In this document: one piece after another, positions 1 to 62,992 of the stretch
Layout of the letters: every line of letters begins with the position of its first letter
How positions within the stretch are numbered: position 1 is the first letter of the stretch
Source of the DNA: Leucoraja ocellata
Taxonomy: Eukaryota
Direction: 5' to 3'
Length of the DNA: 64,000 nt
Assembly: GCA_036785375.1 (NCBI GenBank)
Contig: JAWMAR010000030.1
Coordinates: forward strand, 2,480,001-2,544,000
Notes under the pieces: model-generated
The model's input: the letters and a program-made list of their open reading frames with translations, nothing else
Told to the model about the DNA's origin: nothing
Database searches by the model: none
Position numbers and translations under genes: made by a program

Positions 1-165
1 GCTCTCACTCGGCACTCGGGCTCCTCTTCTACCTTTTTCCTTTCTTCCCCCCTCCCCCCACCCTACATCACTCTGAAGAAGGGTTTTGGCCCGAAACGTT
101 GCCTATTTCCTTCGCTCTTTAGATGCTGCTGCACCGCTGAGTTTCTCTAGCACTTTTGTCTACCT
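1..165 (+). mobile_element. Penelope-like element 3' terminus with hammerhead-like core
   Basis: Pyrimidine-rich tract, then CTGAAGAAGGGTTTTGGCCCGAAACGTT (73-100) and the family arm gatgctgctgcaccgctgagtttct. Confidence 0.65.
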
Positions 166-475
166 GGCTGGACTCCCATTCTCGGGTCTGAAGAAGAGTC
201 CCGTCCTAAAACATTACCAGTCTATTTTCTCCAGCCTGACCCGCTAAGTTACTCCAGCATTTTGTGTCCATCTTTGGTATAAACCAACATCTGCAGTTAT
301 TATAGTCGGGTCTCCGAGCATTGATTGCAATACTTACATAGTTGTAGAGTTCATGGTAATCTTTCTTTCATCGCCATTCCACGTTGAGATTGGCCAAATT
401 AACAGAGCTCCAGCTAAAGGAGAAATAACCCTGCACCTTGTCACTAAAGTATTAATATCTTCCTTTCCTTTGCAG

Positions 476-592
476 AAATTTGAAGACTACCTTTTTGGTG
501 AAGTGGAGCTGAACACGGTCCATATCTCCCAGAGGTTCTCAGCTGACAGTTCTGGCTTTTATTCTTCTTCAGGATCCATCAACTTTTCTTAA
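476..592 (+). CDS. ASCC1: Last coding exon of ASC-1 complex subunit 1 (C-terminus of 2H phosphoesterase domain)
   Basis: Polypyrimidine tract and acceptor tcctttcctttgcAG at 474-475, then KFEDYLFGEVELNTVHISQRFSADSSGFYSSSGSINFS*. This resembles the recalled human ASCC1 C-terminus (..FENFYFGSLKLNSIHISQRFTVDSFGNYASCGQIDFS*), including the HIS motif. Confidence 0.92.
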   Translation, partial: KFEDYLFGEVELNTVHISQRFSADSSGFYSSSGSINFS

Positions 593-1292
593 AGAGTGTG
601 GAATTGTTGAGCCCTGACTGACAAGATATGTGCAGAATCACATTGCACCCCCATCTCCACCCAAAATATAACGACAATAGATACGTCTGCTCAACTTGGA
701 AACCACCGCAGAATAGACTCGAGTGATGCTTAATTGCAAATGAACCAGTGTTTCAATTTGATCCCCTTTTAACCCCCTTTTTCAGAAGCAATGATTGAAT
801 TGTTATGACTTCTTAGCCTTGGGATGAGATGCTGACGTTGTGCAATGGAGTACTCTTGCATGTGACAGAATCAGGTGCTCCCAGGTCATAGGCAACAGAG
901 TCAGATGGTTGGTAGAGATCCCTGTTCTTGACTTCAGCATTGGTCCTCCGCAGGATATGTCCTATTGTTCCATCTGGCAATTTTCCATCCCCTTGCCAAT
1001 CATCGTGTGCTGTCTCGGGCAGATTGCCATATTTGTGCTGACATGTGTCACCACAGACCTGCTCGCTCATACACCTTTTGTAGATGAACCATGAGGCCAG
1101 CAGGCAGAGGAGATATCCATGGTCACTCCAGCCCTAGAAGCGAGAGGCCAGCTTGCTGACATTCTGCTCCACCTTGCCCTCTGATTGCGGTGAATGGTCT
1201 CAGTCTGTCAAACATTCACAGGGAATATTTGGTTGCAACATGTTGCGGTAAGTTAATAGTGGAACAGAGCAGATGTGCTTTATCATGTAACG

Positions 1293-1298
1293 AATAAA
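1293..1298 (+). terminator. Candidate ASCC1 polyadenylation signal
   Basis: First AATAAA I found after the ASCC1 stop codon, with a T/GT-rich stretch at about 1352-1380. Confidence 0.4.
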
Positions 1299-6498: not shown

Positions 6499-6700
6499 AA
6501 GGTGTACAAAAATGCTGGAGAAACTCAGCGAGTAAGGCAGCATCTATGGAGAGAAGGAATAGGCGACGTTTCGGGAAAAGAGTCTCGACCCGAAACGTCA
6601 CCTATTCCTTCTCTCTGTAGATGTCGCCTCAACCGCTGAGTTTCTCCAGCATTTTTGTACACCTTTGATTTTTCCAGCATCTGCAGTGCTTTCTTAAACA
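6499..6700. mobile_element. Penelope-derived fold-back hairpin element
   Basis: Inverted arms aaggtgtacaaaaatgctggagaaactcagc.. and ..gctgagtttctccagcatttttgtacacctt, joined within the hammerhead-like stem II region. Confidence 0.7.
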
Positions 6701-11240: not shown

Positions 11241-12851
11241 GAGCTCCACACTATGACAGGGTCACACTTCAAGTGAGGCATTCAATTCTTTAGAAAATGA
11301 TGAATCAATTTCCACCCCTACAACCCTGGATTTTGTTACAGAGACAGATCCTGATTGTCTTACTGTCAGAGTGAGGCCCAAATACACTTGGAGGAACAGC
11401 ACCTCATACTGCTCGGGCAGCTTACAACCCAGCAGTATGAATATTGATTTATCTAATCATATCTCTAGTCATAAGGTCATAAATATTAGGAGCCGAATTA
11501 GGCCATTCGGCCCATCAAGTCTACTCCACCATTCAATCATGACTAATCTATCTCCCTCCTAACCCTAATCTCATGCCTTCTTCCCATAACCTCTGGCACC
11601 CGTGCTAATCTGGAATCTATCTGTCCCTGCTTTAAAAATATCCATGAACTTGCTCCACAGCCTTCCTCTCTCTCAGCCTGAAGAAGGGTCTTGACATCCA
11701 TTCCTTCTCTCCAGCGATGCTCCCACTGAGTTACTCCAGCGTTTTGTGTCTATCTCATGTCAGTGCCAGCCGTTACCTGCCGTTTCTCCGTATCCTTGTA
11801 CACTGTAGGCAAGCACAAAACTTTCCAAACTTTCTGAAACCTCACGATTCTACTTGCACATGTCCCAAGGTGCTTCATAGGAGTGTTAATTAGGCAAACC
11901 TTGGCACTGAGCCATCTGTTGTCATTTGGCTTTTACAAGCAAAGTTAATTGCAACTTTTGTTCTGTAAAAGGACCAACCCCATGGCAATAGGCACAAGGT
12001 AGTTGATCTGCTCTGCATGGATCAGTCTGTCTAATATCACTGACATTGACAAAGTGCTTGTGTCGAACGTAAATTGGATTATATATTTGTTTCCAGGGCT
12101 CTACAGGAGAGACCTCAATTAAAGATTACTCTCTAACAGTACAACCCTGTCTAGTGTGGGAGCTGCGGATTTCAGGATATGAGATGCTCAGATGGAAGAA
12201 AGAGCTCAATAAACAGACAGAAAAGAATTAAGGCAACGAGAAGAAGTATTGGAAGGATTTGAGGAACATTTAATTGATAAATCTGAAAAGCTGGAACTTC
12301 ATCACATTTACAAAGAACATTTTATCGAATCTTAGAAATGTACTGCACAGATACAGGCCCATTCAGCCCGATGAAAGGGTCTTGACCCGAAACGTCACCT
12401 ATTCCCTTTCTCCAGCGATGTTGCTTGACCCATTGAGTTACTCCAGCTTTATATGTCCATCTTTGGTTTATACCAGCAACTGCAGTTCCTCCCCACTCAT
12501 TCAGCCCACTTCATCCATGCTGACTGATGCCTGCCCCATAGCAGAAGCCTCCTCACCGTGTGGGCTAGAAACTGGAAGTATCCCGAGCTAATTCTGCTCC
12601 CTCCATCATCTACTGCAACAAGTGATGGCTCCCACTGATTGCCGCCGGAACCCTGTGTCCTTTCCAGGACGGACGATGACAGCGATGTGAACATTTGAAA
12701 CATTGGAAGATGGACACAAAAGAAGAAGACTGATGCCGATCTATTGTAAACCCATCTTCCACAAATTAGGCTCATACCTCTCTGCACATTTCATCTCAAA
12801 GTGTCTGCTTCCACTCCCATCTTTGGCAGCTTCTTGCACGTTACCACCTTA

Positions 12852-13882: not shown

Positions 13883-14729
13883 CTAATGGTTTGTACCTGT
13901 CATTTCTGCAAGCCTGGAGCTGTGTATCTGAAATTGGGATTAGTCTCAATTGCACTATTCAGCTATCATAGACATGATGGCTCCAATTGCCACATTAAAA
14001 AAAAAATCCCTACGATTCTTTTCCTAGCCATTATTTCTCCAGCTATTCCTGCACCATCTTCCTTGTCAAAAACTCTAAATGCATTCATTTCCATTGCCAA
14101 CATCCTCCCAGAAGCAACTACACAACAAGAACACTAATCTCTTAGTGCAAAGTATATGTTTGTGTTGGGTGTTATCTGTTGTTTTTGTATAGCGTGGATT
14201 TTTGAATGAATGTTAAGAGATTTGCCGTGCGAAGATTCACTAATTGATCAATTTCAGTTGAAGTTTACAGAAATCCCGATCCAATGTCGTTCGGTGCCAA
14301 GAGCACATTGCATTTCTTGGCAAAAAGGCTATGTGTTCAACAACATGATCATAATTTGTATTACAATCGGAAACTCTGCTCAGTCTTGGGATTTTTGCCA
14401 TGCTTTTAAATCTTAAATCAAGACGGCACCATTTTCAAGCTTCCTTTACAAGCTTTTCGAGCTCCTTTTAAGCTCTAAGTAAAGGGCGGAAATTGGTTTT
14501 GCAAGGACGATGTTACGTGGTCTAACAATTGCTGCAGCTGTCATTAGGCAGGTAAAAGATTAGCTCTGCTTTCCTGAAGGATAATATATTAAATTATACA
14601 GTGCTCTGATCAGGCTACACCATGAGTGCTGTGTTCATTGGGTATCACTGATACTGGAGCATCATTTAAGCCATGGGGGCAATGTGTAGATCAGTGTAGA
14701 GTGACAGTTTTGAAACAGTCACACTGAGT

Positions 14730-23396: not shown

Positions 23397-26270
23397 AGCC
23401 TGAGGTCTTGTGATGATTTTGTTGACCACCCAGAGCTAACCCCAAATTGTGTTTGGGTGGTTTGGCCTCAGTGGTAGATCACACGTTGAAGGACAATGGA
23501 CAGTCCCAATGCCTGGGACATGGACAGTCAGACCTGCACACAACCAGTGCATTTATTTATAGAGCCAGCCTGGCCCATCCCAGCCTGAACCCAAGGGCAT
23601 ACATTTTTTCACATATCTCCTTACAATGTAGGAGACCGTTTGGCCCATCAAGTCTATGTTGGGCCTGGGAGTAGGCCCCATCGGTTCCACAACAACACTT
23701 GTCTTCTCAGTAACCTATTCTCTCTCCACATCCCCTGTTCCTCCCACCATCCACCCTCTCCTGAGGTAACTTATTGCCAACAATTAACTTGTCAATCACC
23801 AGTCTTCGGGTTGTGGGAGGGAACAGAGCATCCGGTAAATTCCATGCAGTTACGAGGAGAACATGCAAACTTCACACAGCCAGTTCTGGAAATCAGGCTT
23901 CATCCCAAGCCAATGATTTGACCCTCAACCAACCCAAACCTCATAACAGAATTGCTGACCTAAAACGCCATCAGTCCATTCCCTCCGCAGATGCTGCCTG
24001 ATCTGCTGAGTTCTTCCAGTACTTTGATTTTTGTTCAAGGTCCCACCATCTGCAGTTTCATGGGTTTCCTACGGCCGTTTCTTCCTTTGTGAGGACATTA
24101 CTAAACAAAACTGCTGAAAGTACACAATGGTTCAGTTATCACCAGTACCTTGCTTGGTGCATTGGGGCATGAGACCCTGCCCATTGCCTTTAGAAACGGT
24201 GACTGCTCTGCAGTGTATCACCAGCGTTTTTTTGCACACTGGCTGCGTTTGATAGCAACCTAACTGTAAAGAGGTAAGCATATTTTTAAAAAGTATTGTA
24301 TTTATAAAGTCGTTTTGATGAGCTTGGGACATTGCAGGGAGCTTGAGGCCAATGGGATGTCTTTGAAGTGCAGTTGTTGTTGTAACATGCTCTCAAAGTG
24401 AAACAAAGGAAGTTCCGTCAAATAACAATATGGTTTGGACTGCGGAGTGTTGTTGTGACAATGATGTCTCTTCCCCTTTATCTTGAAACCAACATGTCTA
24501 TCTTCGGTTTAAACCCACATTTGCTATTCCTTCCTACTCATTTTGTCTGCTCCACTGCAAATCTCCACAAGGTATGCCTACTCTGAAGACATCTCCTCCT
24601 CCTCTCTCCGACAAGCTCTGCAACATCCTCTCTGGCTGCTCCCCCTCTGTGATTCCACCGGTTCTAAATCATTTGATCTATATATCTCTACATCACCATC
24701 TGTATCTCCTGTTTCCCTTTCCCCTGACTCTCAGTCTGAAGAAGGGTCTCGACCTGAAATTCTTTTTCTCCAGAGATGCTGCCTGACCCGCTGAGTTACT
24801 CCAGCTTTTTTTAGATTAAACCAGCATCTGCAGTTCCTACATGATAGGAACAGTTAAGGACTAGAAACAACAGATAGTGGATGTGTTGCTAATCCAGGGT
24901 CAATTTTCCAACTTCAGCATTGATTCACCTAAAGATTAGGAATGCAATTCAAATCTTTTGGATTGGGGTAGGGAAAATGCTATGTTGGTTTAGCACGGAC
25001 TTTGAAGGGACCTATTTAAACGGCCAAATAGCCTCTTCTCAGTGTGGTTTACATTCCGACTGATTTTCAGTTGCCAGGGTAACCGCTGGGAAAGATCAAT
25101 AGTGAGGTTTGTATAATTGTCATCTGTACCATCAGCAGAACAATGAGATTTTTAGTTGCTGCAGCTTAACAAGCCTGTGAACACAAACATACACAGATAA
25201 TATATAATAATCAAAAACACAGTAACCAAGCATGTGTAGGAAGGACCTACTGATGCTGGTTTATTCTGAAGATAGACATAGACACAAAGACTCAGTGGGT
25301 CTGGAGAAAAGGAAAGGGTGATGTTTTGGGTCAGAACCCTTCTTCGAAGTAATTATTATTACAGTGCAAAGGTCCACTGGCACCAGGGGGTGTGAAGTTG
25401 AGACATACAGTTCTGCTCAACTTCATACTCAGTGGTGTGATGGGCAGTCTATGGTGCTCCATGTGGATGCAAAAGACACCATTGCAAGTTCTGATTGACT
25501 ATCAGTGATGCTCGGTGGGTGGGGTCAGTGCAACTCACCTCGTTACTCAGCGCATGCTAATTGCCTTTGCTGCACAGCAGAGTTTCAGAGGCAGTGAAAC
25601 TGCTGGTTCCTCAATCGAAGGTAGAGGAACTCGACCATCTAGTTGCCCAGCTGAGTGCAGGAATAGTACCTCGAGACACAAGGAACTGCAGATGCTGGTC
25701 CAGGCCACAAAGTGCTGGAGTAATTCAGCAAGTCAGGCAGCGTCTCTGGAAGACATGGATAGGCGCCATTTCGGGCCAGGAAACATCACCTATCCATGTC
25801 CTCCAGAGATGCTGCCCAATCTGCTGTTATTCCAGAACTTTATGAAGTTTTTAGGGATACATTCTACCCTTCTACGCTCAGCATTGCAACAAGGCTCAAG
25901 CTTAAAATTACAATAGATTTGTACTTAAATGTCCCGGACAGAATATTGTGTTAAAAGTCTCCTACACCAACATCTTTAACCTCCAAACCTTGTTTATACA
26001 CAAGTTAGTGGTTGAAGATGTCTCATCACTGGTCCATTATTGCGGAGCAGATGCAGTGATCTTTGTTATAAAGGTGCTGCTCATGATCTCAGCAGCTCAG
26101 TGCACTTTACTACTCATGAAGTGGTTTGAAAATGCAGGTTGACAAGGCAAGCGGCCTGTACCTGGTGCGATGGATCATGGAGACCAAGGATGAGTTTTCC
26201 TTTCCTCATCCCCTCAGACTCTCAATGGCTTGGCCAGAGATGCAATGGATAATGCGTCTAACTACAGATT

Positions 26271-26578: not shown

Positions 26579-27878
26579 AAATTAAACATTTTATTTTCAG
26601 ACCTCCTTAATCCAGAACCTGTGACGAGCCTGATAATGTACAACTCTAACTGCTTCTGGATGGATGATATATTGTCCAGGACACGGTCTCATTATGTGCA
26701 GTCCTCCACAGCAGATGGGATCATATTTAAATATAAAACATAAAGCCAATGCTACTCATTTCTGATCAATGTATCATTTTTATAACATTTTAGAGTTTTT
26801 GAGTTAGTGACTCTAAGATCAGAATCTTTCAGCTGTGCAACGGTGTAACCCAATGCCTATGAAAGTTACCACTTGCATGAATCAGCATCAATGTAACACT
26901 ACGTCAATGCAAGCCTTTATCTGTGCCATTGTATACCAGCGTGAATCACCGTCCATGCCATCTCTAAACTAAACTAAGCTCTCTCATGTCTGCTCCCTGC
27001 ACAACTGCCAAGTCTCTGCCTCCAAGCAAGCACCCTCTCAGCAGACCTACGTTTCCTGCATGCAATTAGTTGCATTCGAGATGCGCTACTGAGTGAGTGC
27101 GGCTTGGCTGCAAGCACTTAACTTACAAATCTTTGTGACAAGAGCTATTCCCAGAGCTCCACCATCCTGACACAACCCTGGAAATTACTGAGGCTGATGT
27201 TAATAGAAGAACACTTAACTCATTTGTGTGGCAATCTCCCACTTGCTAGCTTAATGGGAAGCACATTGTAAATATTAAGAGGGTCTACTGCTTGTCATCT
27301 GTGGTTCATTGGGTAGCATCGGGGCCAGGTTGTGTTTCAGAAGACATGAGCACATTATCTCGCCTCATGATCCAGTATTGTACATCTGCCGTGCTGCTCT
27401 GCCAGAGATGCTTCCTATCGACAGAGTATTTAACTGGAGTCCCGGCTATCCTCTCGGGTAGATGGATGGACCTGTATTAACAAATGTTTGGAGGTAATTC
27501 TCGCTCGTGATCTGACAATCATAGCTCGACGGTCTACAGCAATAACAGAATGAAGGAAGGAACTGCAGATGCTGGTTTATACCAATGGTCGACACCAAAT
27601 GCTGGAATAACTCAGCAGGTCAGTCAACATCTCTGGAGAAAAAGGATGGGTAGAGAAGGGTTCCGACCTGAAACGTCACCCATTCCTTCTCTCCAGAGAT
27701 GCTGCCTGACCCGCCGAGCTACTCCAGTATTTTGTGTCCACCTTCATCAGTAAAATGGGTGTCCTGGCCACTTTCAAGTTGCTGTATATGAAAGTGGGTG
27801 CTGTAGTTTCTTGGGTAGACACAAAACGCTGGAGTAACTCAGCGGGTCAGGCAGCATCTCTGGAGAGAAGGAATGGGT

Positions 27879-27906
27879 GACGTTTCGGGTCGAGACCCTT
27901 CTTCAG
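27879..27906 (-). ncRNA. Minimal hammerhead-ribozyme-like motif (best-preserved copy)
   Basis: Minus strand reads CUGAAGA-A-GGGU-CUCG-ACCC-GAAA-CGUC. It has the conserved core boxes, a 4-bp stem II and a palindromic ACGU helix III ending in GUC. Activity is not shown. Confidence 0.55.
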
Positions 27907-45870: not shown

Positions 45871-46476
45871 TGTGCACTTGAGATGTACCCGCTGATACAA
45901 TCTATATAGTCATGAAACAATTGTTTATTTTCAATAGTGCTGAGAAAATTATCGACCACAAGTCTTTCGTCCTACTATTTTTGAGCCTATTTCTGAGCCT
46001 ACTCCTATTTCTGAAGACGGCTCTCGACCCGAAACGTTGCCTATTTCCTTCGCTCCATAGATGCTGCCTCACCCGCTGAGTTTCTCCAGCATTTTTGTCT
46101 ACCTTCGATTTTCCAGCATCTGCAGTTCCTTCTTAAACAAAAGCTATTTTTGATCTGTTGTTTCAGTGGGTAGAAAGATATTCAGATAATTGCAGCATAT
46201 CAGGATGTTCGAGAGACAGCGCAAGACCCAGAGTCATTGTCAGTGCTTTATTGGCACACGTCAGGGGAAATTAATTTTACAACTAACTCCACGAATAGAC
46301 AGGGCAGCCGCCTGCAAACCTCCACATAACAACGACAGTCCAACAATAACTCATTATTGCTGAGACCTAATGGTCTTTCATCCTTTCAAAGCTCTAGGTA
46401 GGAACTTGAGGAGGGACGTTCTGTTTAAACGATGATGATTTTGTTTGTGTTTTAATAGTTTTCTTCTCTTGTGTAG

Positions 46477-46522: not shown

Positions 46523-47669
46523 GTGAGTTTTTCCATCGAGGCTTTTCTTTTTTGTGAGACTGGGAGTTTCAAACTGAGTTGTTTCATTAGATGATTTAGT
46601 GTTTCTGTAACTCTGTCTCAATTCCATCCATGGACACTCACGCTGTCCCAATTTCCAGCCCATTTTCCCTCTCTTCCTATTTACTTCCCTCGCCTTTTAT
46701 TTCCCTTTCTCTCCCTCTATATCTGTGAGCTTTCTAAATGAAATTAGTTTGCTTTTTTGTTTCAACAGGACTTGAGCCTTCTGCTTGCAATTCAGATATC
46801 ATTTAATACCAAGGTGATAGTGAGCAAAGCAAAGGTCATTGTTAGCCCAGGGTCAGTAGGTACCAAACTCACCTCAGAAGGAAGTGAGATCCAGTCCCTC
46901 ACCAAATATATAGGTGTATGTTTATAATTTATATATATATGGGCTGTTAGTCTGTGAGAGGGAGAGAAAGGCTGACCTGCTGAGTTACTCCAGATTTTTG
47001 TGTATTAATCATATGGGGAGAAGGCAGGAACGGGGTACTGATTGTGGATGATCAGCCATGATTACATTGAATGGCGGTGCTGTCTCGAAGGGCCGAATGG
47101 CCTACTCCTGCACCTATTGTCTATTGTCTATTGTCTATCATATTGAATGGCGGTGCTGTATCGAAGGGCCGAATGGCCTACTCCTGCACCTATTGTCTAT
47201 TGTTTCCATGAATCAGGGGGGTTCCGTCTGAGAGGGGAGTGGAGAGAATGGCAGAGACTGAAGAATAACCTTGAGCATGGGCAGGGACAGAGCAGGGCAC
47301 TGTGTCCTTCCTCTGTCAGTCAGTAGGCTACTTCTAGGCTCAACGGAGATTAACGGAGAACAAACAGTTGAGGTGAATGAGTGGTGTCAGCTGGCTACTG
47401 GGCCGTGTCATGTAGCCTGGTGTTGGTACAGCTGTCAGCCATCAGCTGTAAGCATGTGTGAAATAAATCAGCTGAGCTGCCAGAGATGGGAGATTATGCC
47501 CGAGTGCTGGAGCCCCTGGGAACATTGAAGGCAGCACAGAGACAGAGCAGCTGAAGCATACATTGAATTTGTTGCAGAGACGCAGACTGACGCAGACATG
47601 CTGGGAGAACAGGGTTTTATCAATTTTAACAACACTTTAACAACTTCAAGGCTCCATCCAAGAACTCAA

Positions 47670-48197
47670 ACAGTCCAGGTGAGGCAGAGGTTCACTTGCA
47701 CCTTCTCCATCCTCATCTACTGTATCCGCTGTTCCAGGTGTCAACTTCTCTACATCGGCGAGACTAAGCGCAGGCTCGGCGATCGTTTCGCTGAACTCCT
47801 CCGCTCAGTCTGTCTTAACCAACCTGATCTCCCGGTGGCCCAGCTCTTCAACTCCCACTCCCATTCCCAATCTGACCTTTCTGTCCTGGGCCTCCTCCAT
47901 TGTCAGAGTGAGGTCCAGCGCAAATTGGAGGAACAGCACCTCATATTTGGCTTGGGCTAGTTTATACCCCAGCGGTATGAACATTGACTTTAGATAGCCC
48001 TTGCTTTCTCTCTCTCCATCCTCTCCCCCTTCCCAGTTCTCCCACTAGTCTTACTGTCTCCACCTCCATTCTATCTTTGTCCTGCCCCTGCCCTGACATC
48101 ATTCTGAAGAAGGGTCCCGACCTGAAACGTCACCCATTCCTTCTCTCCAGAGATGCTGCCTCACCCACTGAGTTACTCCAGCATTTTGTGTACACCT
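47670..48197 (+). mobile_element. Penelope-like retroelement 3' part: GIY-YIG endonuclease remnant and terminus with hammerhead-like core
   Basis: QVRQRFTCT..LIYCIRCSRCQLLYIGETKRRLGDRFAE..PVAQLFN..E.QHLIF.LG, then a pyrimidine tract and CTGAAGAAGGGTCCCGACCTGAAACGTC at 48104-48131. Confidence 0.85.
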
Positions 48198-48249: not shown

Positions 48250-48482
48250 CATAGACAAAAAAAAGCTGGTGTAACTCAGCGGGTCAGGCAGCATCTCTGG
48301 AGAAAATGAATAGGTGACGTTGCGGGTCGGGACCCTTCTTCAGACTAACTACTGAAAACAGTCTGAAGAAGGGTCTCGACCCGAAATGTCATCTATTCCT
48401 TTTCTCCATTCTCCAGAGATGCTGACTGACTCGCTGAGTTACTCCAGCTTTTTGTGTCTATCTTCTGTTTAAACCAGCATCC
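48250..48482. mobile_element. Penelope-derived hairpin with a hammerhead-like core on each strand
   Basis: ..gacccttcttcagac [spacer] gtctgaagaagggtctcgacccgaaatgtc.. Confidence 0.75.
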
Positions 48483-49189
48483 TTCCTGCACTATAGACCG
48501 CGTACCAGGAGTCAGTCTTCCTGAGCTCCATGAATTTTCTACATATCTGATAATGAACTGTGGGGGCCCAGCATGTTTAACATATTATGAAAAGCACCTT
48601 GGTGCTATTTTTATTGTTGGTTTTAGTTTGCTAATAACGCCACTCAACACATCAGCGTTTCAGATATGTGGCAATGTCAACCAGTATAAAGTGAACATGT
48701 CAGGTCACCGCATCTAAAGAGACATTGAAATAATACAGAATGGGGGCAAGTCAAGTTGAGTGGATCATTATATGCATGTGTACAGTGAAGTGTAGATACA
48801 ATGAACATCTAGCTTGCAGCAGCATCACAGGCAAGTAGACTCAACCAGCACGCAAAACATTAATTATGAATTATCTATAAATTCTACAAGGCAGTGAAAA
48901 GAAAAAGACTGTGCAAAAACAAGACATTCAGAAGTGCAAAGCGCAGTTAGAAAACAAGTCCATGGTGGTGCAAAGGTGGTCCATAATGCTCGGTTGCTGA
49001 GGTAGGATTAGGGTTGTGCAGTAAAATGGAGAACCAAGGAACTGATAATGCTGGAACCTTAAGCAAAACACAGTGCTGGAGGATCTCGGCGGATCCGGCA
49101 GCATCTGCGGAAGAAGTGAAAGCACATTCCCGTCGCAGATGCTGCCTGACCCACTGAGTTACTCCAGCACTTTGTGTTTTGCTTTGGGT

Positions 49190-50045: not shown

Positions 50046-52319
50046 TCCTTCTATTTTGTATCACCTTGTGAAGAAGGGTTCTGACCCAAAATGTCTATCC
50101 ATGCTGCCTGACCCAGTGAGTAACTCACGATTCACAGATCCTTGTGCCTCTTGCATTATATTCTGTTGCTCTGTAACACCACCTAATGAAGAATTGATGC
50201 AATTACTAGCCTATGATTATACAGTTTCAAACCCAGGTGAATTTGATAACATAACAAAGAATGTAATAAGTAGTAAAGCTAATAGATATTCGGAGATGTG
50301 GGACAAACTTGGATTGTTTTTTCTGGAGTGTAGGAGGTTGAGAGAGACCTCAGAAATATATAACGTAGATAGTCAGAATGTGCAGGAAGGAACTGCAGAT
50401 GCTGGTTTAATCCGAAGATAGACACAAAAAACTGGAGTAACTCAGCGGATCAGACAGCATCTCTGGCGGGAAGGAATGGGTGACGTTTCGGATCGGGACC
50501 TTCGTCAGAACCTTTTTTCTCAGTGGAAATGTCAAAGATCAAGGGAAGAGGGAGAAAGTTTAAGGGAACTTTGCAGAGCAAGTTTTGATAAGGAGAGTGG
50601 TGCGTACATGGAACACGCTGGTGATGGAGGCTGATAAGAGTGGCATTGAAGAGGCTTTTAGATAGGCACCGGGACATGCAGTGAATAGAGGCAGAGAGGA
50701 TTAGTTTATCTTGGCTTCATGTTCGGTACAGACATTGTGGGCCTGTTCCTGTGTTGTTCTCTCCTATGTTCTTTAGGTTAGTTGAAGGACCTCCTGCTGC
50801 GTCACCCAATGCAGCACGGCCCTGAGCCTTTGATAATCAGGCAGCCTTGGGTCTAATTGTTGCTCTCCTCAAGGACACCAAACATAGCACTCTTTCAGTT
50901 GTTGGAAGGAACTGCAGATGCTGGTTTAAACCGAAGATAGACGCAAAATGCTGGAGCAACTCAGCGGGACATGCTCCATCTCTGGAGAGAAGACGTTTCG
51001 GGTCATTCACACTGCTAAACCCCAACTCATGTTGTAGAGATAGTGCGTTACTTCTGCTTTCTGGTTAACCTACACCCAATAACTGGACAGTTCGGATTTA
51101 ACCCCTTGAATGTCGCCCATTCCTTCTATCCAGAGATGCTGCCTGCCTGTCCCCGCTGAGTTAGTCCGGCATTTTGTGTCTCTCTTTAGCACACTTGCAG
51201 TCCTGGGCTCACAAACCAATCTGTGAGTCCAGGAGTCTCCGCACTTGAAAGTTGTAGCGGAGATGATCAATGAGATGAGATACGGGTGAATCCCACACAC
51301 TGACAAGCTTGAAGAAGACGTGTGTGGATTGCACAAGCAAAGCAGTTAACAGTTGGTAGACGTGACCCAGCCAGTAACTCGTGGTGGTAAACTGTTCATT
51401 TTTATCTGACTTTATCCAGTGGATTTGAGAATCCCTGTGGCAAGAACAGTCCGAGGCAGACATCAATAATATGCTACCTTGCTTCTTGCGTGCAGGTCCA
51501 ACACGCTAAAGATTTCTGATGTAATTGAATAGATATGGTCGTGCGCACTGAGCAAAAACAGTGAGACAACAGTGTGAGTTGCCTCTTAAGTCCCAACTCA
51601 GGGGCCACAGTGATTTTATTTGCTGCCAGGTTCTGTGAATATGCATGTTGGCAACAAGGCAGATAAGAAAGTGCTTCATTCTTTATTGTTATTGATCTTA
51701 GGGCCTGCAGCCCAATAAATTAATTTTGTAGGAAGGAACTGCAGATGTTGGTTTAAACCGAAGATAGACACAAAAAGCTGGAGTAACTCAGCGGGACAGG
51801 CAGCATCTCAGGAAAAAGAGTCTCGACCCGAGACGTCTCCCTTTCCTTACTCCAGGGATACTGTCTGTCCCGCTGAGTTACTCCAGCACATTTTTTTGTG
51901 TTAAATCCAACCCCAATCTGTTCTCTGTGCTAAAGGAACTCGGTGACTGGCACTGTTCCTCCAGCACTTTGTGTTTTGCTCAAGATTCCAGCATCTGCAG
52001 TTCCTTCGGCCCATTTCTGTTTTCTTATGCGTCATAAAAATTCCCACAGCACAGTTTTGAAAAGAGGAGGCCAGGCTCTGTTCACTGTTGTCCTGGCTGA
52101 TAATTATCTTCCAAGGAACAGCAGTGAAACCAGTTATCACAGTCCTCTCCTCTAGTTACAAATTGTCTGATATCTCCCATATTATTAACACTGACCTCAA
52201 TGCAGAAGTAGGGTGTTGGTTGTAATTTGGATTACTGAATATGAAAGGCGCTATGGAAATGCAAACTCAATATGTTCCAAGAGAAAGTCTTCTGGATTAT
52301 AATACCATGTTGATACACG

Positions 52320-53062
52320 ATTTGAGTTTAGGAGCAAGGAGGTCCTTCTGCAGTTGTACAGGGCCCCGGTGAGACCACACCTGGTCTCCTAATCTGAGGA
52401 AGGACATTATTACTATTGAGGGAGTGCAACGTAGGTTCACAAGGTTAATTCTCGGGATGGCGGGAATGACATATGATGAAAGAATGGGTCGAATTGGGAA
52501 TTAGAAGGATGAGCGGGTATCTTATAGAAACATATAAAATTCTTAAGGGATTGGACAGGCTAGATGCAGGAAAAATGTTCCCCATGTTGAAGGAGTCCAG
52601 AACCAGGGGTCACAGTTTAAGAATAAGGGGTAGGCCATTTAGGACTGAGATGAGGAAAATCCTTTTCACCCAGAGAGTAGTGAATCTGTGGAATTCACTG
52701 CCACAGAAGGCAGTGTATGTCAAATAATTTGATGTTTTCAAGAGAGTTAGATTTAACTCTCGAGAGTTAGATTTAACTCTCTAAGTGTCTGAAGAAGAGT
52801 TTTGGCCCGAAACGTCGCCTATTTCCTTCGCTCCATAGATGCTGCCGCACCCGCTGAGTTTCTCCAGCATTTTTGTCTACCTTCGATTTTCCAGCATCTG
52901 CAGTTCCTTCTTGAACAACGTTAGATTTAGCTCGTAGGGCTAACGGAATTAAGGGATATGGGAGAAAAGCACGAATTTTGGATGGCCAGCCATGATCATA
53001 TCAAATGGCGGTGCTGGCTCGAAGGGCCGAATGGCCTACTCCACCTATTTTCTGTTTCTATG
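52320..53062 (+). mobile_element. CR1-like LINE 3' fragment with a nested Penelope terminus (about 52785-52918)
   Basis: YLIETYKILKGLDRLDAGKMFP..RTRGHSL. The insert is flanked by a repeated gttagattta. Confidence 0.85.
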
Positions 53063-53549
53063 ACTTCAATCCTGCAAGACCTTCATCAACAACAGGCCCA
53101 CATCAATAAGAAAGACTCCTAATTGACCTTGCTAGTTTAGCCAGGGTGAACATTAACTTATTATATGACCCTGGCAATAATATGTTCCATGAGAGTATTA
53201 AGAGTGCTCTGGTACTTTTGAAAATCGAACCTGTGTAAAATTAGTGTAAATTTGGAAAAGCAAAGTTGCATTGCTCAGTGCACTTTGGGATATCCCAGAG
53301 CACTTTGAAGGTAATTAAATACTTTTGAGATGCAGAGACTCGTACAGCCTGAATTACAGCAGGATGTTTGCAGACCAGCAAGCTCCTACACTGAACAACA
53401 TGGCAATGACCAGACTGTCTGTATTCAGTACATTAATTTTGAGATAAATGCTGACTGGGATAACCAGAATTTAAAAAAAAACAAAACCCTGCAGATGCTG
53501 ATTAATCTGAAACAAAAACAGAAATGCTGGAAGTACTCGGTAGATCTTC

Positions 53550-54252
53550 CAGGTGAGACAGAGGTTCACGTGCACCTCATCTACTGCATCTCCGGTGTTC
53601 CAGATGTGTCCTCCTCCACATCAGCGTGACCATTTTCTGAACATCAGCATCGCGAAGGCAAAGGTTTCCGGATCTCCCAGTTGCTGATCATTTTAACACC
53701 TCTTCCCATTCCCACACTGACCTTTCTGTCCTGGGCCTCCTCCATTGCCAGAGTGAGGCCACTTGCAAATTGGAGGAACAGCACCTCATATTCCACATGG
53801 ATAGCTTATAACTGAACACTGAATTGTCCAATTTTAGGTAATTACAACCCCCCCCTCATTCCATTCTTTTCTCATCTCCCCAGGGCCCCTCCTGTACTTG
53901 CATCTATTTCTCCCTTCCCCCTTTCTTCCCACCTACTTCCTTTCCTCTCAATTCACAACTCTTCAAATCTTTTGTTTCACACCTTCTATCTTTTCAGCTC
54001 TGCCCTTTGTCCAACCACCTGGCTAACAAATAACCCCCTCACCTGTATCAACCTGCCTGCCTGCCTGCCAACATTTGTCTTACCTCTCCACTCTTCCAAC
54101 TTTCTTCTCCCCCCCCACCCCTCCTCCCCCTTATCTGAAGAAGAGTCCCATCCCAAAACAACACCTACCCATGTTCTCCAGAGCTGCTGCCTTTACCATT
54201 CATTTACTCCAGCACTTTGACTTTTATTTTGGAAACCAGTATCTGCAGTTCA
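53550..54252 (+). mobile_element. Second, older Penelope GIY-YIG fragment and terminus
   Basis: Paralogous to 47670-48197 (caggtgagacagaggttcac..ctgggcctcctccattgccagagtgaggcc..ttggaggaacagcacctcatatt). Confidence 0.8.
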
Positions 54253-56464
54253 TTGTTTTTTTCCCAAGAACAGAAATGTTTCAGAATATGGAAGTGTCTT
54301 AGCCCAAATCCAGCTGTCCTCTCAGACAGTGGAAGATACAGGAATTGCAGATGCTGCAATCTTGCATGGGCTCTGCAGGTCAGGCAGTATCTCTGGAGGA
54401 CGGGGTTTAGACAAACCCTACTTCAAAAACCCACACGGTCACAGGGAGGACATGCAAACTCTGCAGAGAGAGCACCAGAGGCCAAGATGGGAACCAGAGT
54501 CACTGAAGCGGTACTGCCAAATGAAGCTTCACCTTTCTGAGTCACAGAGTCATACAGCCCTTCGGTCCTAATACGGAAACAGGCCCTTCAACCCAACCCA
54601 TCCATGCCGACCAAGATGCCCTGCTTAAGCTGGTGCCATTTGCCTGTGTTTTGCCTTTATCCCTCCAAACCCTTCCTATCTAAGTATCTGTCCAAGTGCG
54701 TTTCAAATGTTATTATACTATCTGCCTCTACTACCTGCTCTGGCATCTTGATCCACATACCCACCGCTCTCTGAGTGAGACCAGCCGTTTAGAAAGCTTC
54801 GAGAAGAGAGGCGGTTGACTCATGTAGTTGTAATGTGGCAAACACAGCAGCCAATTTGTGTGATGCCAACCAGCCAACTTTTAATAAAAAGGATAAATAT
54901 TAGCCAAGATATTGGAGAAGAACTTCCTGTTCTTTTTTTTTTAATGGTGTTGTGGTGAGGGTATGTAACTCAATTAGTGTTTTATCCAAATGAGTTCACC
55001 CCCTGCTATGTAGTATTTCTTCGGTAATGCAGTGGGAACAACGGACTGGATTTTGTGATGTGGGTCCCTGGAATAGGAATCAACTCCATCGTGTGTCTCG
55101 GTCACTTGAGTGGCTACCAGATGATAACGCTGCTGAGGACCTGAAATGGTCTTCAGTTTCTGACGTGCTGAGGGATATATTCCTTCAGACAGCACAGGGA
55201 TATGGAAAGATGCATTAAATATCTACAATCTCTCGGATGGGAAATATATTCCCAGCAACTCTGCCATTAGTGAGCATTTAATGATTATTTAATGAAATCA
55301 TTAAAGGTTTTAGACTACAGTTTCTCTCTGGCTTTTAGGCAGCTTCTATGTTTAGTGTAATGCTTTTTGGACCAGCAACAGTCCAACTTGGCTACAGACG
55401 GAGAGCTAATGTGCTTTAGGAAAATACACTGCGGTGATAGACTATCCAGGGGAGTTTAATAACAAGTCTGTGACCCTACAGTGCCTTTCAGCCACTTAAT
55501 AGGCATGAAAATGGGTTGGGGAAAAACTGACCATGGACAAAGAACGAGGTGTTAAGACTAACAATTTGGTCAGGAGGATTGGTTGCAAGTAGTAAGGAGA
55601 AAGATGGAGAGATTTAGCTCAAGATTCCAGCATCTGCAGTTCTGTGTATCTCACTGAAAGATATAGTTACTGGACCAGGTCCATAGCAGGTAGTCAGCAT
55701 CAGGGATAAACCTGCCTTCACCTTGTCTTCAGGCTGACTGCCTGTGGTAGTGACAGGTGTCCATCACAGTGTTGATGGAAGTAAACACAAAATAAATGTC
55801 TCTGGCAAGAGATGCTGCCTGTCCTGCTGAGTTACTCCAGCTTTTTGTGTCTATCTTCGGTTTAAACCAGCATCTGTAGTTCCTCCCTACACAAAGTAAT
55901 GGGTAAACACCCCCCCCCCCCCCCCCCCCCCCCCTCCCCCTCCTTTCTATTGCATTCAATTCTTGTGGGAAGAAACAACATTTTGTTAGCGTTCCTAATG
56001 ACCTCGGGCTCTGCAGCGGTGAAGCAGGTAGTGCCGCTGCATCACAGCTCCAGTGACTGGGGTTGAACCCTGACCTCCGCTGGTGTCTGTGTGCATTTAG
56101 CAAGTTCTCCCTGTGACTCCATGGGTTCCTCTCACATCCTAAAGGCATGCAAGGTTCAATGGGTCAATGATGCCAAGTGCTAACACAGTGAAATTCATCT
56201 TCTTACAAAGAGCCCAAGAGAGTAATGCCACACTGTGTTGAAATACCGTTGCAATTGGTTCGACAATTCCCCCCACAATATAATGTAGATGTTGAGAAAA
56301 TCAGGGGGGGGGGGGGGATGGGGGGGGGGTTAATGAGCATTTGAGAGGGAAAATGCTACATGGAAATAAGTAGAGAAGGAGGAATGTTGAGATTGCTCGG
56401 AGAGCTGGCATGTTCTCAATGGGCTGAATGGCCTCCTCTATCGGAAATACGAAACCGTGTACTT

Positions 56465-57843: not shown

Positions 57844-58575
57844 AGACAAATCTATAAAGAAGCTTAGGTGCAACTTATTGAGGGTGGTGAAAATGTGGAA
57901 ACCATTATCATGTGAGATGTGTGCATCGGTGCGTTTGAAGGGGCAGTACATGAGAGGGAGACGGAATGACTGTCCTCCTGATTACTTTTTATCTTTGTAA
58001 GCCTCATTGTCACCTTCCCCTGGCTAACAATGATCTATTCTACGTTTTCCTTGTCCTCCTCCTTTGATCTCTCGCTTTCACACCTTACCCTTCCATATCT
58101 CTGCGTCTCCCTCTCCCTTGACTCTCAGTCTGAGAAGGGCCTCGACCCGAAAGATTACCCATTCCTTCTCTCCAGAGATGCTGCTGCCTGTCCCACTGAG
58201 TTATTCCAGCGTAATGTGTCTACCTTTATATAAAATGCCAGAGCAGGTAGAGTCGTATGGAGCTCTGTCATTGGTATGGGTTAGATGGGCTGAAAGGTCT
58301 GTTTCTGTGTCAGAAAACAACGCAGCGCTGTCTTGTTAATGGGAGCGATTGGGGAGGTCGGGGGGGGGGGGGGCCTTGTGCATCCACAGTCACAGAATTT
58401 CTACTGGCTGAGAACCTTTGTCAGTGGCTGCTTTGTATCCAGTTAACGAAGGTCTTAGAATGAGGACCGCAAAACTTGGTGTTCCTCAAAGGACCTTGGC
58501 TCCACCCCCAACCCATGATATAGTAGCGTCTTCAGTCAACCCAGAGAATGTTGAGCCAGGCAGGGATATGATTAG

Positions 58576-58764
58576 GTTACACAGAAAAGCTGGAGGAAAC
58601 TCAGCGGGTGCAGCAGCATCTATGGAGCGAAGGAAATAGGCAACGTTTCGGGCCGAAACGTTGCCTATTTCCTTCGCTCCATAGATGCTGCTGCACCCGC
58701 TGAGTTTCTCCAGCTTTTCTGTGTAACCTTCGATTCTCCAGCATCTGCAGTTCCCTCTTAAACA
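58576..58764. mobile_element. Penelope-derived hairpin with 15-bp TSD
   Basis: Near-perfect palindrome. CAGGGATATGATTAG at both 58561-58575 and 58765-58779. Confidence 0.85.
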
Positions 58765-59297: not shown

Positions 59298-59832
59298 GGG
59301 GGGGGGGGGAAATCAGCAACTTGTTGTTTGGTCCCTCCACATTTTCCAAAAAACACATAGTCACAGAAACTGGCCAGTCACCCCAACTTGACCATGTTGA
59401 CCAAGATGCCACATTTTCACCAGTTGCACCCGCCCACATTTAGCCCATATCCTTCTAAACCTTTCCTATCCGCGTTCCAAAGATGCTGCCTGTCCCGCTG
59501 AGTTACTGATATTTTTCTATGTTATATTCCATGTCTTTAGCCATTCATCTAGGGTGGGAGATTGCAACCTTCACGTGGTCCGCCCTGTTTCGACTAATGC
59601 AATCAACCCGGCGTGCACAATCAAACAAGATCAAATAGAACAAGTTGTCCTAGGTTGTGTACGCCATATGCCAGAAGAAGAAGCCATTCATCTAACCTTG
59701 CTGATGCCTTTCCACATCTTTCTCAATATCCGCATTGCCTCCCAGCACTCTTATCATTAATAAGCCTAGAAAAATTTGCATTTGATCCCTTCTAACAAAT
59801 TCATGATGAGAGCTCATGAACAGAGGAATGGA

Positions 59833-60131
59833 GGTCAAGGTTTAAGAATAAGGGGTAGGCGATTTAGAACTGAGATGAGGAAAAACGTTTTCACCCAGAG
59901 AGTTGTAAACCGATGGAATTCTCTGCCACAGAAGGTGGTGGAGACTAATTCACTGGATGTTTAATTATAGAGTTAGATTTACCTCGAAAGGAATCAAGGG
60001 ATATGGGGGAAAAAAGCAGGGACGGGTACTGATTTGGGATGATCAGCCATGATCATATTGAATGGCGGTGCTGGCTCGAAGGACCGAATGGCCTACTCCT
60101 GTACCTATTTTCTATGTTTTTACGTTTCTAT
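59833..60131 (+). mobile_element. CR1-like LINE 3' end
   Basis: LRIRGRRFRTEMRKNVFTQRVVNRWNSLP followed by 3'UTR. Confidence 0.8.
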
Positions 60132-61313
60132 GTGGTGAGCTCCAGCACTCATCACTGCAGGAAGACATTGCTTTTAACAGAGATTACCAAGACAAGGCCA
60201 CATGATGGGGTTGGGGCTGGAAACAAGGATAAGGCTTGAAATTCTAAGAACAGCTTCACCTGTTAGATTTAAAACAATATATAAAAGCTACCTTCCTGAT
60301 TGAACCTTATGGTTGCTTGTGTGAAAATATTGCTACGCTTAAAATTAAATTGTATTTGCCACCGAGGAATATTCTGTACTCCCAGTCAATTGCTTCATGC
60401 AGCTTTGAACTTGAAAGCACATTACTAAATCATTTTTAAATGCAATCGCTCACCTTGGATCTGCTTGCTCCTCGGACAATCACGCGAGTTAACATTACAA
60501 TCATGCACTGCAAGACACCTCTTAAATCTCTAGCCTCCTGCAGTGACAATGCAGCGTTGGTTAACAAGCCAACTCCCCGATATGTTACAAAAACACACTT
60601 AATGAAAGGGTTCGCGCAAGAATTAATCAGAACATATTTTATTAAAAAAAAACAAATTAAGTGGAAGGTCAGGCTTAAGGGATGAAGTGGATAAGCACTT
60701 GTTTCCTTTCGTGCCAGGTACAGTGGGCCAAATAATTGTCCACCCATTCAATACTATTTAAGTTCTAAAATCCTCTAGTTTATGCTCAGCCTTCGGGGAT
60801 CCTTTTCGGAGGTCCGTAGGATCATAGCAATTCTGGTGCACGACTTGTGCTTTGTTACAAAGCAAATTAGTTTGTCTGAAGATAATTGAGGTCACTAATG
60901 GGGTTGCATCAGCTGAGACATTCAACCAAGGCCTCTGCTGCCAATGTACAATATTGGCTGCCACACGCAACAAATCTGGATGCCATTCAGACATCAGGCT
61001 GGTAGCATGAATGGGACATAAAGACCAACTTGAATAATTGAGCTGAACCACTTCCCTGTGATATTTTATAACGTTACCCGAATGCCCAACCATCGATATC
61101 CTGGTTTCACAGCTGACCAGATCAATAGCTGACCTGGTCACAGCTGACCAGATCGGCTCGAAGGGCCGAATGGCCTACTCCTGCACCTATTTTCTACGTT
61201 TCTATGTTTCTAATACTGTGGCTGCAAATAAGGATCTGAGGCAGTGTATCCTGTAGTAAATAAACTCGCCTTCTGACACCTGAAAGCCTTCCCTGCATTC
61301 ACAAGATACATGT

Positions 61314-61496
61314 TCAAGAAGGAACTGCAGATGCTGGAAAATCGAAGGTAGACAAAATTGCTGTAGAAACTCAGCGGGTGCGGCAGCATCTATGGAGCGA
61401 AGGAAATAGGCAACGTTTCGGAACGAAACCGTTGCCTATTTCCTTCGCTCCATAGATGCTGCCGCACCTGCTGAGTTTCTCCAGTAATTTTGTGTA
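61314..61496. mobile_element. Penelope-derived hairpin with 18-bp TSD
   Basis: CATTCACAAG(A/C)TACATGT at both 61296-61313 and 61497-61514. Confidence 0.85.
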
Positions 61497-62992
61497 CATT
61501 CACAAGCTACATGTCAGGAGCACGACAAATCTACTTATCTATTTTATCTTAAAGTAACTTAATAATCACATTTAGCTGTGGAATCCACCAAGAACACAAT
61601 GCAGCAATAATCTTGGTTGTTCCTTCCAGCCTTGAAGCAAAGGCTCTAATTTTAAAGATAATACTTGAATTTGAACTAAAAACTGAAAGAGGGTTGAAGA
61701 AGGGTCTCGACCAGAAACGTCGCCTATTCCTTTTCTCCAGAGAAGCTGTCTGAACTGCTGAGGTACTCCAGCTTTTTGTGTCTCTCTTCGGTTTAAACCA
61801 GCACCTGCAGTTCCTTCCCGCACTGAGAGATGGTTTATGTGTTCCAACAATTATTTGGATCGTCAAATGTTAAAGTAACAACTTTCCCAGCCAGAATGAT
61901 GTCGATTTTTTTTTCATTCCATAATACATCGATGCAGTGTATCTGAGCTACAGAGCCCGAGTTCACAACTCGTGGATTCTTGAAGGAAGTGCTTGCACCC
62001 TCACTCAACCAACAGGTAAAATTGTGCTTTGAATTTAAAGTATTTTCCTGGTTTCAAGCCGCCAACCCTTGCCTTGCTTTAGTAATCTCTATTAAATGTC
62101 CCTGAACTTCCTGCAGTGATCATGTTCATACATTCAGAAGTGATAGGAGCAGAATTAGCCCATTCGGCCCATCAAGTCTACTCCGCCATTCAATCATGGC
62201 TGATCTATCTATCCCTCTTCTGCCATCTCCCCATGTCCCCTGACACCCTCACTGATCAAACCGTACTGATCAGTACTGGAGTCCAGTACACCACTATTTT
62301 CCTTCATGTAACTGGAGTTCAACTCATGAAGAAGAGCCTCGACCAGAAACGTCGCCCATTCATTCTCTCCAGAGATGCTGCCTCACCCGCTGAGTTACTC
62401 CAGCTTTTTGTGTCTACCTAGGCTTCAGCTCAGCTCTATGACTGCAGTAAGCAGCAGCATCAACTAAAGCTCGTTGATTGAGCCGGTCTAAACTGTTCTA
62501 AAAGGCAGCAGGCTATAAAAGGTTTAAAGTTGGATTACATGAACAAACTAGGGGAATTGAAAATTGAAAGGAATGCTTTCGTCATGTAATTTGCTCCATA
62601 ATCTGTTTTATTTAACAGGATTAGAGCATCTGGGAACCTAAAGACTTGGATGATAGTCCACTGACAACAGACTATTTGGAGTCAGTTAACAATGAGCACA
62701 CAGACGGGGTAAAAATTCACTACTGAATGGAGTTCCCTTTCCCATTTTGTATGGGGAATATGAGGCTGTAAATAAGCTGCAATGCAATCATTAATATCAT
62801 GGCCCATTCTTGTAAACAACCTTCACACATTGATAGGAAGGGTTTTAGTTCCTCTGTTTGAGAGATCGCAACTAATATAACGCAACTCCCCACAAACCTA
62901 CTTTTCCTTCGCATCGTACTTTTTTTTTGTGAACAAAAATCTAGAATTTAAAATTAACATCTAACCAAGCATAAAATTAGCCATTCGCCTGT

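Follow-up and report, generated by a model that had tools for sequence, protein, structure and literature searches.

Minimal hammerhead motifs in the pLTR of a Penelope-like element of Leucoraja ocellata and the decay of its inserted copies

A stretch of 64,000 nucleotides of Leucoraja ocellata (contig JAWMAR010000030.1 of assembly GCA_036785375.1, hereafter the window) carries many copies of a short repeat that resembles a hammerhead ribozyme, a large part of them within a SPOCK-family gene. Do these copies form a ribozyme system that acts on host transcripts, or are they what a known mobile element has left behind? A first-pass annotation, made from the letters alone, proposed a heavily amplified ribozyme-bearing retroelement system, with many copies transcribed inside the SPOCK2 pre-mRNA. 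We conclude that the repeat is, in all probability, the pLTR of an endonuclease-bearing Penelope-like element (PLE) with the minimal hammerhead typical of that class, and that the window copies are decaying leftovers which probably do not cut host RNA.

The hammerhead motif

We begin by considering the anatomy of the motif, in which a minimal type I hammerhead is borne out. CUGANGA, GAAA and UH follow in order around helix II in all five subfamily consensuses and in four intact window copies. As in the metazoan PLE hammerheads of Cervera and De la Pena (2014, PMC4209133), this core comes with an unpaired base between A9 and G10.1, a G10.1-C11.1 pair and a palindromic 15.2-16.2 stretch without loop 3, and it is located in a pLTR whose copies are mostly solitary and truncated. 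The palindrome is ACGU in all five consensuses and permits a dimeric helix III, with a duplex energy of about -3 kcal/mol. In contrast to those published motifs, helix II here has 4 bp only and is without covariation; compensatory helix changes among families serve in that paper as supporting evidence, outside its descriptor. Helix I in the consensus has 2 bp only, one side varying between U-A and U-G, which is like D. virilis and shorter than the 4-5 bp of Schistosoma (PMC4209133). The extra A and the short stem I, at first listed as caveats, are not defects, since both are published for these motifs in the same paper.

With energies that ignore tertiary contacts and protein, helix I has a predicted probability of 0 and stem II of 0.00-0.21 across the five consensuses. 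The intact window copies also vary in detail, with G-U at 10.1-11.1 in the copy at 48104 and AUGU in helix III of the copy at 48363.

The element that carries the motif

The next question is "what element does the motif belong to?" The proposed Penelope link holds, as the motif lies within the terminal repeat (pLTR) of a Penelope-like element with a GIY-YIG endonuclease, and 30 genomic loci join endonuclease end, spacer, hammerhead, core end and tail. The layout is a GIY-YIG end, a pyrimidine spacer of 100-280 nt and the hammerhead, followed by the 3' end of the core about 90 nt past the hammerhead and an optional tail of about 38 nt; in full elements the ORF begins about 165 nt past the core. 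Both GIY-YIG remnants named in the first-pass annotation are confirmed, the second being frameshifted (about 53545-53840). The relevant segments of the window are as follows.

47661..47957, plus strand: what is left of the C-terminal GIY-YIG endonuclease in the Penelope-like ORF (PF01541 at E 0.005, which does not reach the curated cut-off)
47958..48192, plus strand: ORF end, pyrimidine-rich spacer, hammerhead (motif 48104-48131) and core 3' end
53545..54254, plus strand: older subfamily, with frameshifted GIY-YIG remnant, longer spacer and a broken hammerhead at 54135
11364..11766, plus strand: third endonuclease remnant (about 11364-11450), then pLTR with the hammerhead partly deleted
24495..24835, plus strand: tail into the ORF start region (M-P-T-L-K), then a pLTR copy (24732-24835) without helix III and cleavage site

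A single ORF that has a reverse transcriptase (RT) as well as a C-terminal GIY-YIG can be read from the broken copies L047, L048 and L053 (RVT_1 E 0.004, GIY-YIG E 0.0005; both weak and under cut-off). It contains DKG and YIDD motifs, and locus L053 shows a pLTR followed by N-terminal, RT and endonuclease regions; a PDB search with the RT piece gave no match. The RT-EN linker of L047, L048 and L049 has CX4CX2C, and a CX2-5CxxC linker motif marks the Neptune and Nematis clades (PMC8557442). Judged by these residues the linker appears to be of the Neptune/Nematis type. The likeness to such EN+ PLEs (Craig et al. 2021, PMC8557442; Arkhipova et al. 2013, PMC3846280) includes the RT with C-terminal GIY-YIG, the zinc-finger-like linker, partial pLTR tandems, an optional 30-40 bp tail at one end, an inverted 5'-truncated copy and target duplications. 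These duplications are 11-16 bp here and 8-10 bp in the rotifer elements, and no intron is found in the pLTR here.

PAc, a Poseidon element of Anolis (Frangieh et al. 2024, PMC11167929), differs in that its ORF begins inside the hammerhead, whereas the likely start codon here lies about 165 nt downstream, and in that its core has AUG where AAG is found here. The in-frame ATG at that distance is present in 21 of the 28 matched loci, 11 of which come from one amplified block. We have rejected a PAc-like start inside the hammerhead: the frame is closed by TGA in the common variants, and L053 gives it no support, a deletion covering the real start. Instead of a distinct ribozyme-driven retroelement system, the ordinary end of a Penelope-like element is obtained. 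It is a known kind of element, and neither a new kind nor a regulatory SPOCK ribozyme is shown.

Copies in the window

A profile search of the window finds 71-72 pLTR fragments spanning 70..62433 (41 plus, 30-31 minus), and the same search of the reversed decoy sequence gives 0 matches. The fragments make up 51 insertion units, among which 15 are simple head-to-head pairs. A strict hammerhead descriptor matches the window 4 times; in 30 Markov shuffles the mean is 0.17 and the maximum 1.

All 13 sites named in the first-pass annotation do carry the motif or a remnant of it. Intact motifs (core, four stem II pairs and helix III pair) are limited to four of them, at 73, 27879-27906 (minus), 48104 and 48363; the remaining nine are not intact. 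Four of these keep the core with a mismatched stem II (36456, 46011, 52789, 29488) and five have a broken core (13791, 24736, 40094, 30121, 48316). The minus-strand motif at 27879-27906 is the sole perfect one among the window copies. Representative copies are listed here.

27806..27909, minus strand: short pLTR copy with the perfect minimal hammerhead (core 27906-27879; helix I 3 bp)
51..166, plus strand: young-subfamily pLTR copy with intact core (73-100), UUYG loop, GUU site and a pyrimidine tract upstream
46010..46132, plus strand: solitary short copy that begins at the core and has a tail and a mismatched stem II
52787..52918, plus strand: solitary short copy that has a tail, a mismatched stem II and, at its flanks, a direct repeat of 14 nt

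The Rfam hammerhead families have no match in the window at E up to 1, and the Rfam miRNA and snoRNA matches there are fold-back pairs or other repeats.

Amplification, conservation and decay

The heavy amplification claimed for the repeat is borne out, with 63,497 exact matches to the 28-nt motif in the genome and 0 in the control. The published counts are about 9,000 in Xenopus and about 4,000 in coelacanth (PMC4209133), to be compared with an assembly that is large and has duplicated haplotype-like segments. The searched supplement text of that paper contains no shark or skate term, and our search of the open-access literature found neither a shark or skate PLE hammerhead nor start-site clustering.

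Is the ribozyme conserved in all these copies? Among the five subfamily consensuses, the core has 0 variable positions in 11 and the downstream part 18 in 60 (p about 0.03), and the invariant core would fit selection acting on the parent elements while active. Blocks downstream of it are equally invariant, and invariance alone is therefore no proof of ribozyme function. Of the two subfamilies first described, both exist, but in stem II they are set apart by a single one-sided change, from U-A to U-G, and by a different loop, not by covariation. Helix changes between subfamilies are one-sided only, with no compensatory ones, and the covariation of stem II that the annotation suggested looking for is absent from 14 window copies (score 0.262, shuffled 0.256).

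In the inserted copies, the expected excess of core conservation is not supported either, and 325 of them decay neutrally: G12 is changed in 26.3% (26.2% at other CpG G) and AAA/U16.1 in 7.1% (against 6.6%). One copy-level count has the core changed at 6.0% and the flank at 9.5% of non-CpG sites, in a set picked on its 5' core alignment, and the difference is gone without that selection. An amplified subfamily with a broken helix III was considered and rejected, as its 20 ACUU copies spread over several sub-variants and so reflect recurrent mutation. A search for a further family of hammerheads in which helix II is longer gives only 1 unrelated match, and no such family, among 67 descriptor matches in 1.08 Mb; a pattern with an 18-nt spacer has 94 matches genome-wide, mostly rearranged copies of the same family, against 20 in the control.

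The host gene and its RNA

We turn to the gene in which many of the copies lie.

20752-20931, plus strand: SPOCK-family first coding exon, the family being known from Kazal-like, SPARC_Ca_bdg and thyroglobulin exons of the duplicate

Between this exon and the assembly gap at 59098, where the window's gene copy ends, lie 49 of the 71 fragments. A structure search with the SPOCK exon returned SPARC-family chains only, and the Atlas had no usable match for it.

Could the intact copies be functional ribozymes that cleave host pre-mRNAs, that of SPOCK among them, through dimers of distant sense copies, and alter their output? The material for it exists: 3 of 12 motif-covering sense copies in the SPOCK region are intact, perfect motifs number tens of thousands genome-wide, the motif is borne by 13,778 of the 7,335,232 reads that one poly(A) run from a related organism contains, and dimer cleavage is reported for the PLE hammerhead class (PMC4209133; review PMC6765202). 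However, sense copies, intact ones included, are not depleted from the introns of six gene regions (143 sense and 149 antisense in all; 14 and 10 for intact copies; 87 and 93 for solitary ones), and the copies decay neutrally. The RNA reads of the related organism, in which most copies are degenerate, show neither a drop in depth nor a pile-up of ends, the poly(A) depth being flat across the cleavage site. The 2-bp helix I and the predicted alternative fold also speak against cutting, as do the low in vitro activity of these hammerheads, dimers included (PMC4209133), and the requirement of the PAc ribozyme for the element's protein (PMC11167929). We consider host cutting highly improbable, and the effect on the SPOCK pre-mRNA finds no support in strand bias or, for the related organism, in read depth. 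Hosts, then, do not purge sense copies from introns.

Copy ends and insertion

The ends of the copies tell where their templates began. The first base past the cleavage site is the start of 1 copy in 482, and of the 280 copies whose 5' core is intact, 194 have their end no more than about 6 nt upstream of the core. Among 62 perfect motifs, all 23 short copies start within this distance, while the upstream spacer is kept in 39 perfect young motifs, and short copies are not the majority everywhere. Copies running into the ORF share the same 5' edge (loci L144, L145, L148 and L152). Since the short copies begin 0-6 nt ahead of the core and hardly ever at the cleavage site, their templates are likely to have been uncut transcripts that start just before the core, as far as DNA ends can tell. 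Core and tail 3' ends that fit two internal RT start sites, the absence of RNA ends at the cleavage site and uncut RNA as template are shared with PAc (PMC11167929). An origin of inserted copies from uncut RNA is relevant to the role of the hammerhead in PLEs, which is an open question (PMC8557442).

Alternatively, the short copies might be a non-autonomous, retrozyme-like family that replicates via ribozyme-cut, circularised RNA. Animal non-LTR retrozymes (10.64898/2026.07.22.740005) are likewise pLTR-derived, non-coding short repeats with a type I hammerhead, present in the sole chondrichthyan sampled there, and the 90-130 nt unit at very high copy number, together with a unit of 92-94 nt that is in places joined head to tail in contigs of other organisms, would suit such a family. 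Unlike retrozymes, the copies here are not met in tandem arrays; head-to-head pairs dominate (68, against 7 same-orientation neighbor pairs, among 366 matches), and neither unit ends nor tandem joins fall at the cleavage site. The short copies also follow the same subfamilies as the endonuclease-bearing ones, and helices I and III are minimal. We give this alternative very little credence.

The fixed 5' edge itself may be explained in another way, as a strand-switch, endonuclease-resolution or splice-acceptor point at the TCAG-T-CTGA palindrome, with the motif perhaps kept for protein binding and not for catalysis. All subfamilies have a pyrimidine tract ending in CAG ahead of the core, the copy ends scatter over about 6 nt, helix I is where the intron of D. 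virilis ends (PMC4209133), and palindromes are known at inverted junctions (PMC3846280). Against it, the short copies are without a common upstream exon, and exact mirror junctions are few (5 of 130). An intron that would skip the stop, reaching from the end of the ORF to the CAG ahead of the core, was rejected: the spliced-junction pattern has one weak match genome-wide, no such joint is among the best-supported RNA joints, and the youngest subfamily is without a candidate donor. On balance this account of the edge is unlikely.

Returning to uncut transcripts as templates, we can outline how the copies may have been made. Before the core lies TCAGTC, which we take to be initiator-like by the Inr consensus. 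The upstream pLTR would drive transcription with a start 2-3 nt before the core at this site, a position read from DNA ends only; the sign of a cap-derived extra G is weak (26 of 58, where 31% would be expected; p 0.016, for a test picked post hoc). The protein of the element would nick the target and prime reverse transcription at the core end or the tail end, as in Anolis PAc. Priming on the 5' repeat would reach the 5' end of the RNA within 90-130 nt, run off there and so yield the short copies, priming on the 3' repeat would give long 5'-truncated copies, and a second, inverted event would give the head-to-head pairs. With its 2-bp helix I, a helix III that needs a partner and an alternative hairpin favored in prediction, the ribozyme is predicted to be off by default and would cut only when dimerized or when assisted by the protein of the element, and the inserted templates were probably mostly uncut.

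For these PLEs of cartilaginous fish, a capped start 2-3 nt before the core, a hairpin-silenced ribozyme and about a million short inserts as run-off cDNAs, internally primed on the uncut 5' repeat, are put forward together as a tentative picture, possible but somewhat doubtful. If true, the genome would be a natural record of the start and stop points of PLE reverse transcription. It would also be among the richest vertebrate stores of hammerhead motifs, tolerated by the host because they are silent without the element's protein.

Inverted pairs and recent movement

Three inverted pairs and one empty target site (all without strand) complete the features of the window.

48250..48483: inverted head-to-head pair of a minus copy, in whose core (48343-48316) A13 is altered, and a plus copy, whose core (48363-48390) is intact and has AUGU
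58567..58764: inverted head-to-head pair of 5'-truncated copies (fold-back)
61311..61503: inverted head-to-head pair with a flanking direct repeat
51632..51645: empty target site, filled in a near-identical duplicate region

In the duplicate region (G000:C30:2784470-2785030), an inverted element of about 550 bp has the same 14-bp sequence on both sides. The empty site in the window and this flanked insertion in the duplicate together indicate recent movement. A young, still-moving subfamily with fixed ends offers a convenient means to map PLE start sites and to test protein-assisted cleavage. Flanking repeats of at least 11 nt are found around 15 of 81 inverted units and 22 of 180 solo units, compared with 1-2% in shuffled pairs.

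Abundance and anatomy of the element

We begin by considering how many copies of the terminal repeat (pLTR) of this Penelope-like element (PLE) the window holds and what state they are in. A profile built from 120 of the 155 seed copies finds 72 fragments (41 on the plus and 31 on the minus strand; 71 at a slightly different cut-off), which group into 51 insertion units, and reversed decoys give no profile matches. All thirteen motif places named in the first-pass annotation are real, but only four are intact hammerheads; four have stem II mismatches and five have broken cores. A strict hammerhead descriptor gives 4 matches in the window vs a mean of 0.17 in 30 shuffles. For the genomic background, forty 10-kb stretches of large contigs (399,800 bases), with positions chosen independently of the element, contain 149 fragments; the motif is covered in 92 and intact in 18. 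Extrapolation from these stretches gives about 1.3 million fragments genome-wide, and on this basis the window has about three times the average fragment density. The exact 28-nt pattern of the motif has 63,497 genomic matches (control: 0), a count inflated by duplicated segments. The repeat is a real, very abundant family of an already known kind, the association of PLEs with hammerheads having been published. Our literature searches turned up no paper on this shark/skate PLE family, which may be recorded in Repbase, Dfam, the bioRxiv supplements or one supplement file of PMC4209133.

Using window 47660-48230 as the query, thirty loci of the element are found with a common layout: a GIY-YIG end, a pyrimidine-rich spacer, the hammerhead, an end of the core about 90 nt on and, in some copies, a tail of about 38 nt. 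In the longer copies, pieces of reverse transcriptase (RT) and endonuclease are present, along with the motifs DKG and YIDD and a linker of the form CX4CX2C, a type that marks Neptune/Nematis elements (PMC8557442). At one locus (L053) the pLTR precedes the ORF. The element has an ATG in frame with the ORF some 165 nt past the core. All five subfamily consensuses keep a further ATG, at model positions 54-56 (e.g., window 48153-48155), ahead of the likely ORF start. In the main subfamily it begins a short reading frame, which could act as an upstream ORF with a regulatory role.

The 5' edge of the copies

Among 482 copies with the 3' part, one begins at the base right after the cleavage site and 13 begin within positions 31-35, which is the background rate. 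Where the 5' core is intact (280 copies), 86 copies keep the spacer; the others, 120 solo and 74 inverted, stop no more than about 6 nt upstream. In the first 60 listed loci of one contig (C1), which hold 62 perfect motifs, 39 are flagged as long (two of these are really solo) and all 23 short ones begin 0-6 nt before C3. The six bases before the cut are free of G in 100 listed young copies, about five of which have unrelated flank there. Four ORF-reaching copies (L144, L145, L148, L152) begin at the same edge as the short copies, and loose ends cluster at this edge in other organisms. At the junction there is a weak excess of copies with an additional G (26/58 vs 31% expected, post hoc). Most simply, the RNA of the element would begin at this shared 5' edge, just before the core, and then be copied uncut. 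Such a start and template agree with findings on PAc, the Poseidon PLE of Anolis (PMC11167929), whose reverse transcription is initiated internally on uncut RNA and whose ribozyme depends on the protein, and with the internal pLTR promoter described for D. virilis (PMC2377424).

Ribozyme features of the motif

The motif has the anatomy of the published PLE minimal hammerheads (PMC4209133), down to an additional base following A9, the G10.1-C11.1 pair and the palindrome at 15.2-16.2; CUGAAGA is present 30 times in the alignment in the supplement of that paper. Clustering 241 copies on non-hammerhead columns gives six groups, of which a 14-copy deletion group is left out. The five remaining subfamily consensuses (mean divergence 4-19%) have upstream spacers widely different in length and sequence, and vary at 0/11 core, 2/14 stem, 3/8 free and 18/60 downstream positions (p about 0.03). 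This core invariance fits selection on the parent elements, but invariance of equal degree is seen in other blocks downstream. Both stem changes are one-sided and no compensatory change is found; stem II covariation, proposed as a check in the first-pass annotation, is not supported. Excess conservation of the core is likewise unsupported in the inserted copies, where decay is neutral: G12 is changed in 83/316 against 249/952 for other CpG G, and AAA/U16.1 in 90/1262 against 271/4125 for invariant flanking A/T. A separate count had the core better kept (6.0% vs 9.5%), but on copies selected for the 5' core. In folding, pairing of the purine-rich core to a pyrimidine run behind the cleavage site leaves stem II with a probability of 0.00-0.21, and the ribozyme is predicted by this modeling to be off by default.

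The duplicate of the window and recent retrotransposition

The window (G000:C30:2480001-2544000 of the 3.44-Gb assembly), whose repeats resemble those of a shark, skate or ray, has a second copy of its positions 1-59086 at about C30:2733000-2792433, with 97-98% identity. Its single SPOCK-family coding exon is at 20752-20931 (plus strand); the later exons (Kazal-like, SPARC_Ca_bdg, thyroglobulin) are found only past the duplicate, at C30:2795284-2811648. The SPOCK copy of the window, without these exons, runs out at a 200-N gap (59098) and probably stems from either an uncollapsed haplotype or partial duplication. Near-identical pairs are common among other genomic matches too, so both haplotypes are likely kept in the assembly.

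At the site matching window 51632-51645, the duplicate carries an inverted element of about 550 bp that contains two young hammerheads, is tailed at one end and is flanked by a 14-bp duplication. Such an insertion directly shows retrotransposition since the two copies diverged. Direct repeats of at least 11 nt flank 15/81 inverted and 22/180 solo units, compared with 1-2% for shuffled pairs. Among 366 matches, head-to-head pairs number 68 vs 7 same-orientation pairs. Four head-to-head pairs fold back into long hairpins that pick up scores from unrelated miRNA models:

6481-6689, head-to-head fold-back hairpin
21949-22131, head-to-head fold-back hairpin
58567-58736, head-to-head fold-back hairpin
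61328-61503, head-to-head fold-back hairpin

If transcribed, head-to-head pairs would give double-stranded RNA, a possible substrate for editing or silencing. About ten 19-nt units in tandem (33546-33735), within an inverted pair, appear to be derived from antisense pLTR sequence. Elsewhere, at least 11 contigs (L159, L161-L170; C1315, C2442, C1554, C784 and others) share an amplified block of over 3 kb (97-99% identity). The block includes both a tandem PLE junction whose hammerhead is broken and a short tandem repeat, and looks like satellite or segmental amplification.

Effect on host RNA

We turn our attention to six gene regions, with gene direction taken from exon matches and the stretches between matches assumed to lie within one gene. 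Fragments are 143 sense vs 149 antisense (p 0.77), or 87 vs 93 when inverted pairs are removed, and intact copies are 14 vs 10. A poly(A) run from another organism has 13,778 reads on the motif out of 7,335,232, equally split between the strands, and around the cleavage site the read depth is 6288/6517 before and 6259/6516 after, with no pile-up of read ends; as evidence on cleavage this is weak, the run coming from another species in which most copies are degenerate.

Other repeats and matches

A long near-perfect inverted repeat at 18973-19196, unrelated to the PLE and with a spurious MIR820 score, is possibly a MITE. A partial CPEB3-ribozyme match at 41806-41835 (minus strand; 23 bits vs a gathering score of 35, E 0.11) is probably due to chance. 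Open frames at 14700-15308 and 16684-17313, with many SINE-like repeats nearby, resemble pieces of RT from other LINE families.
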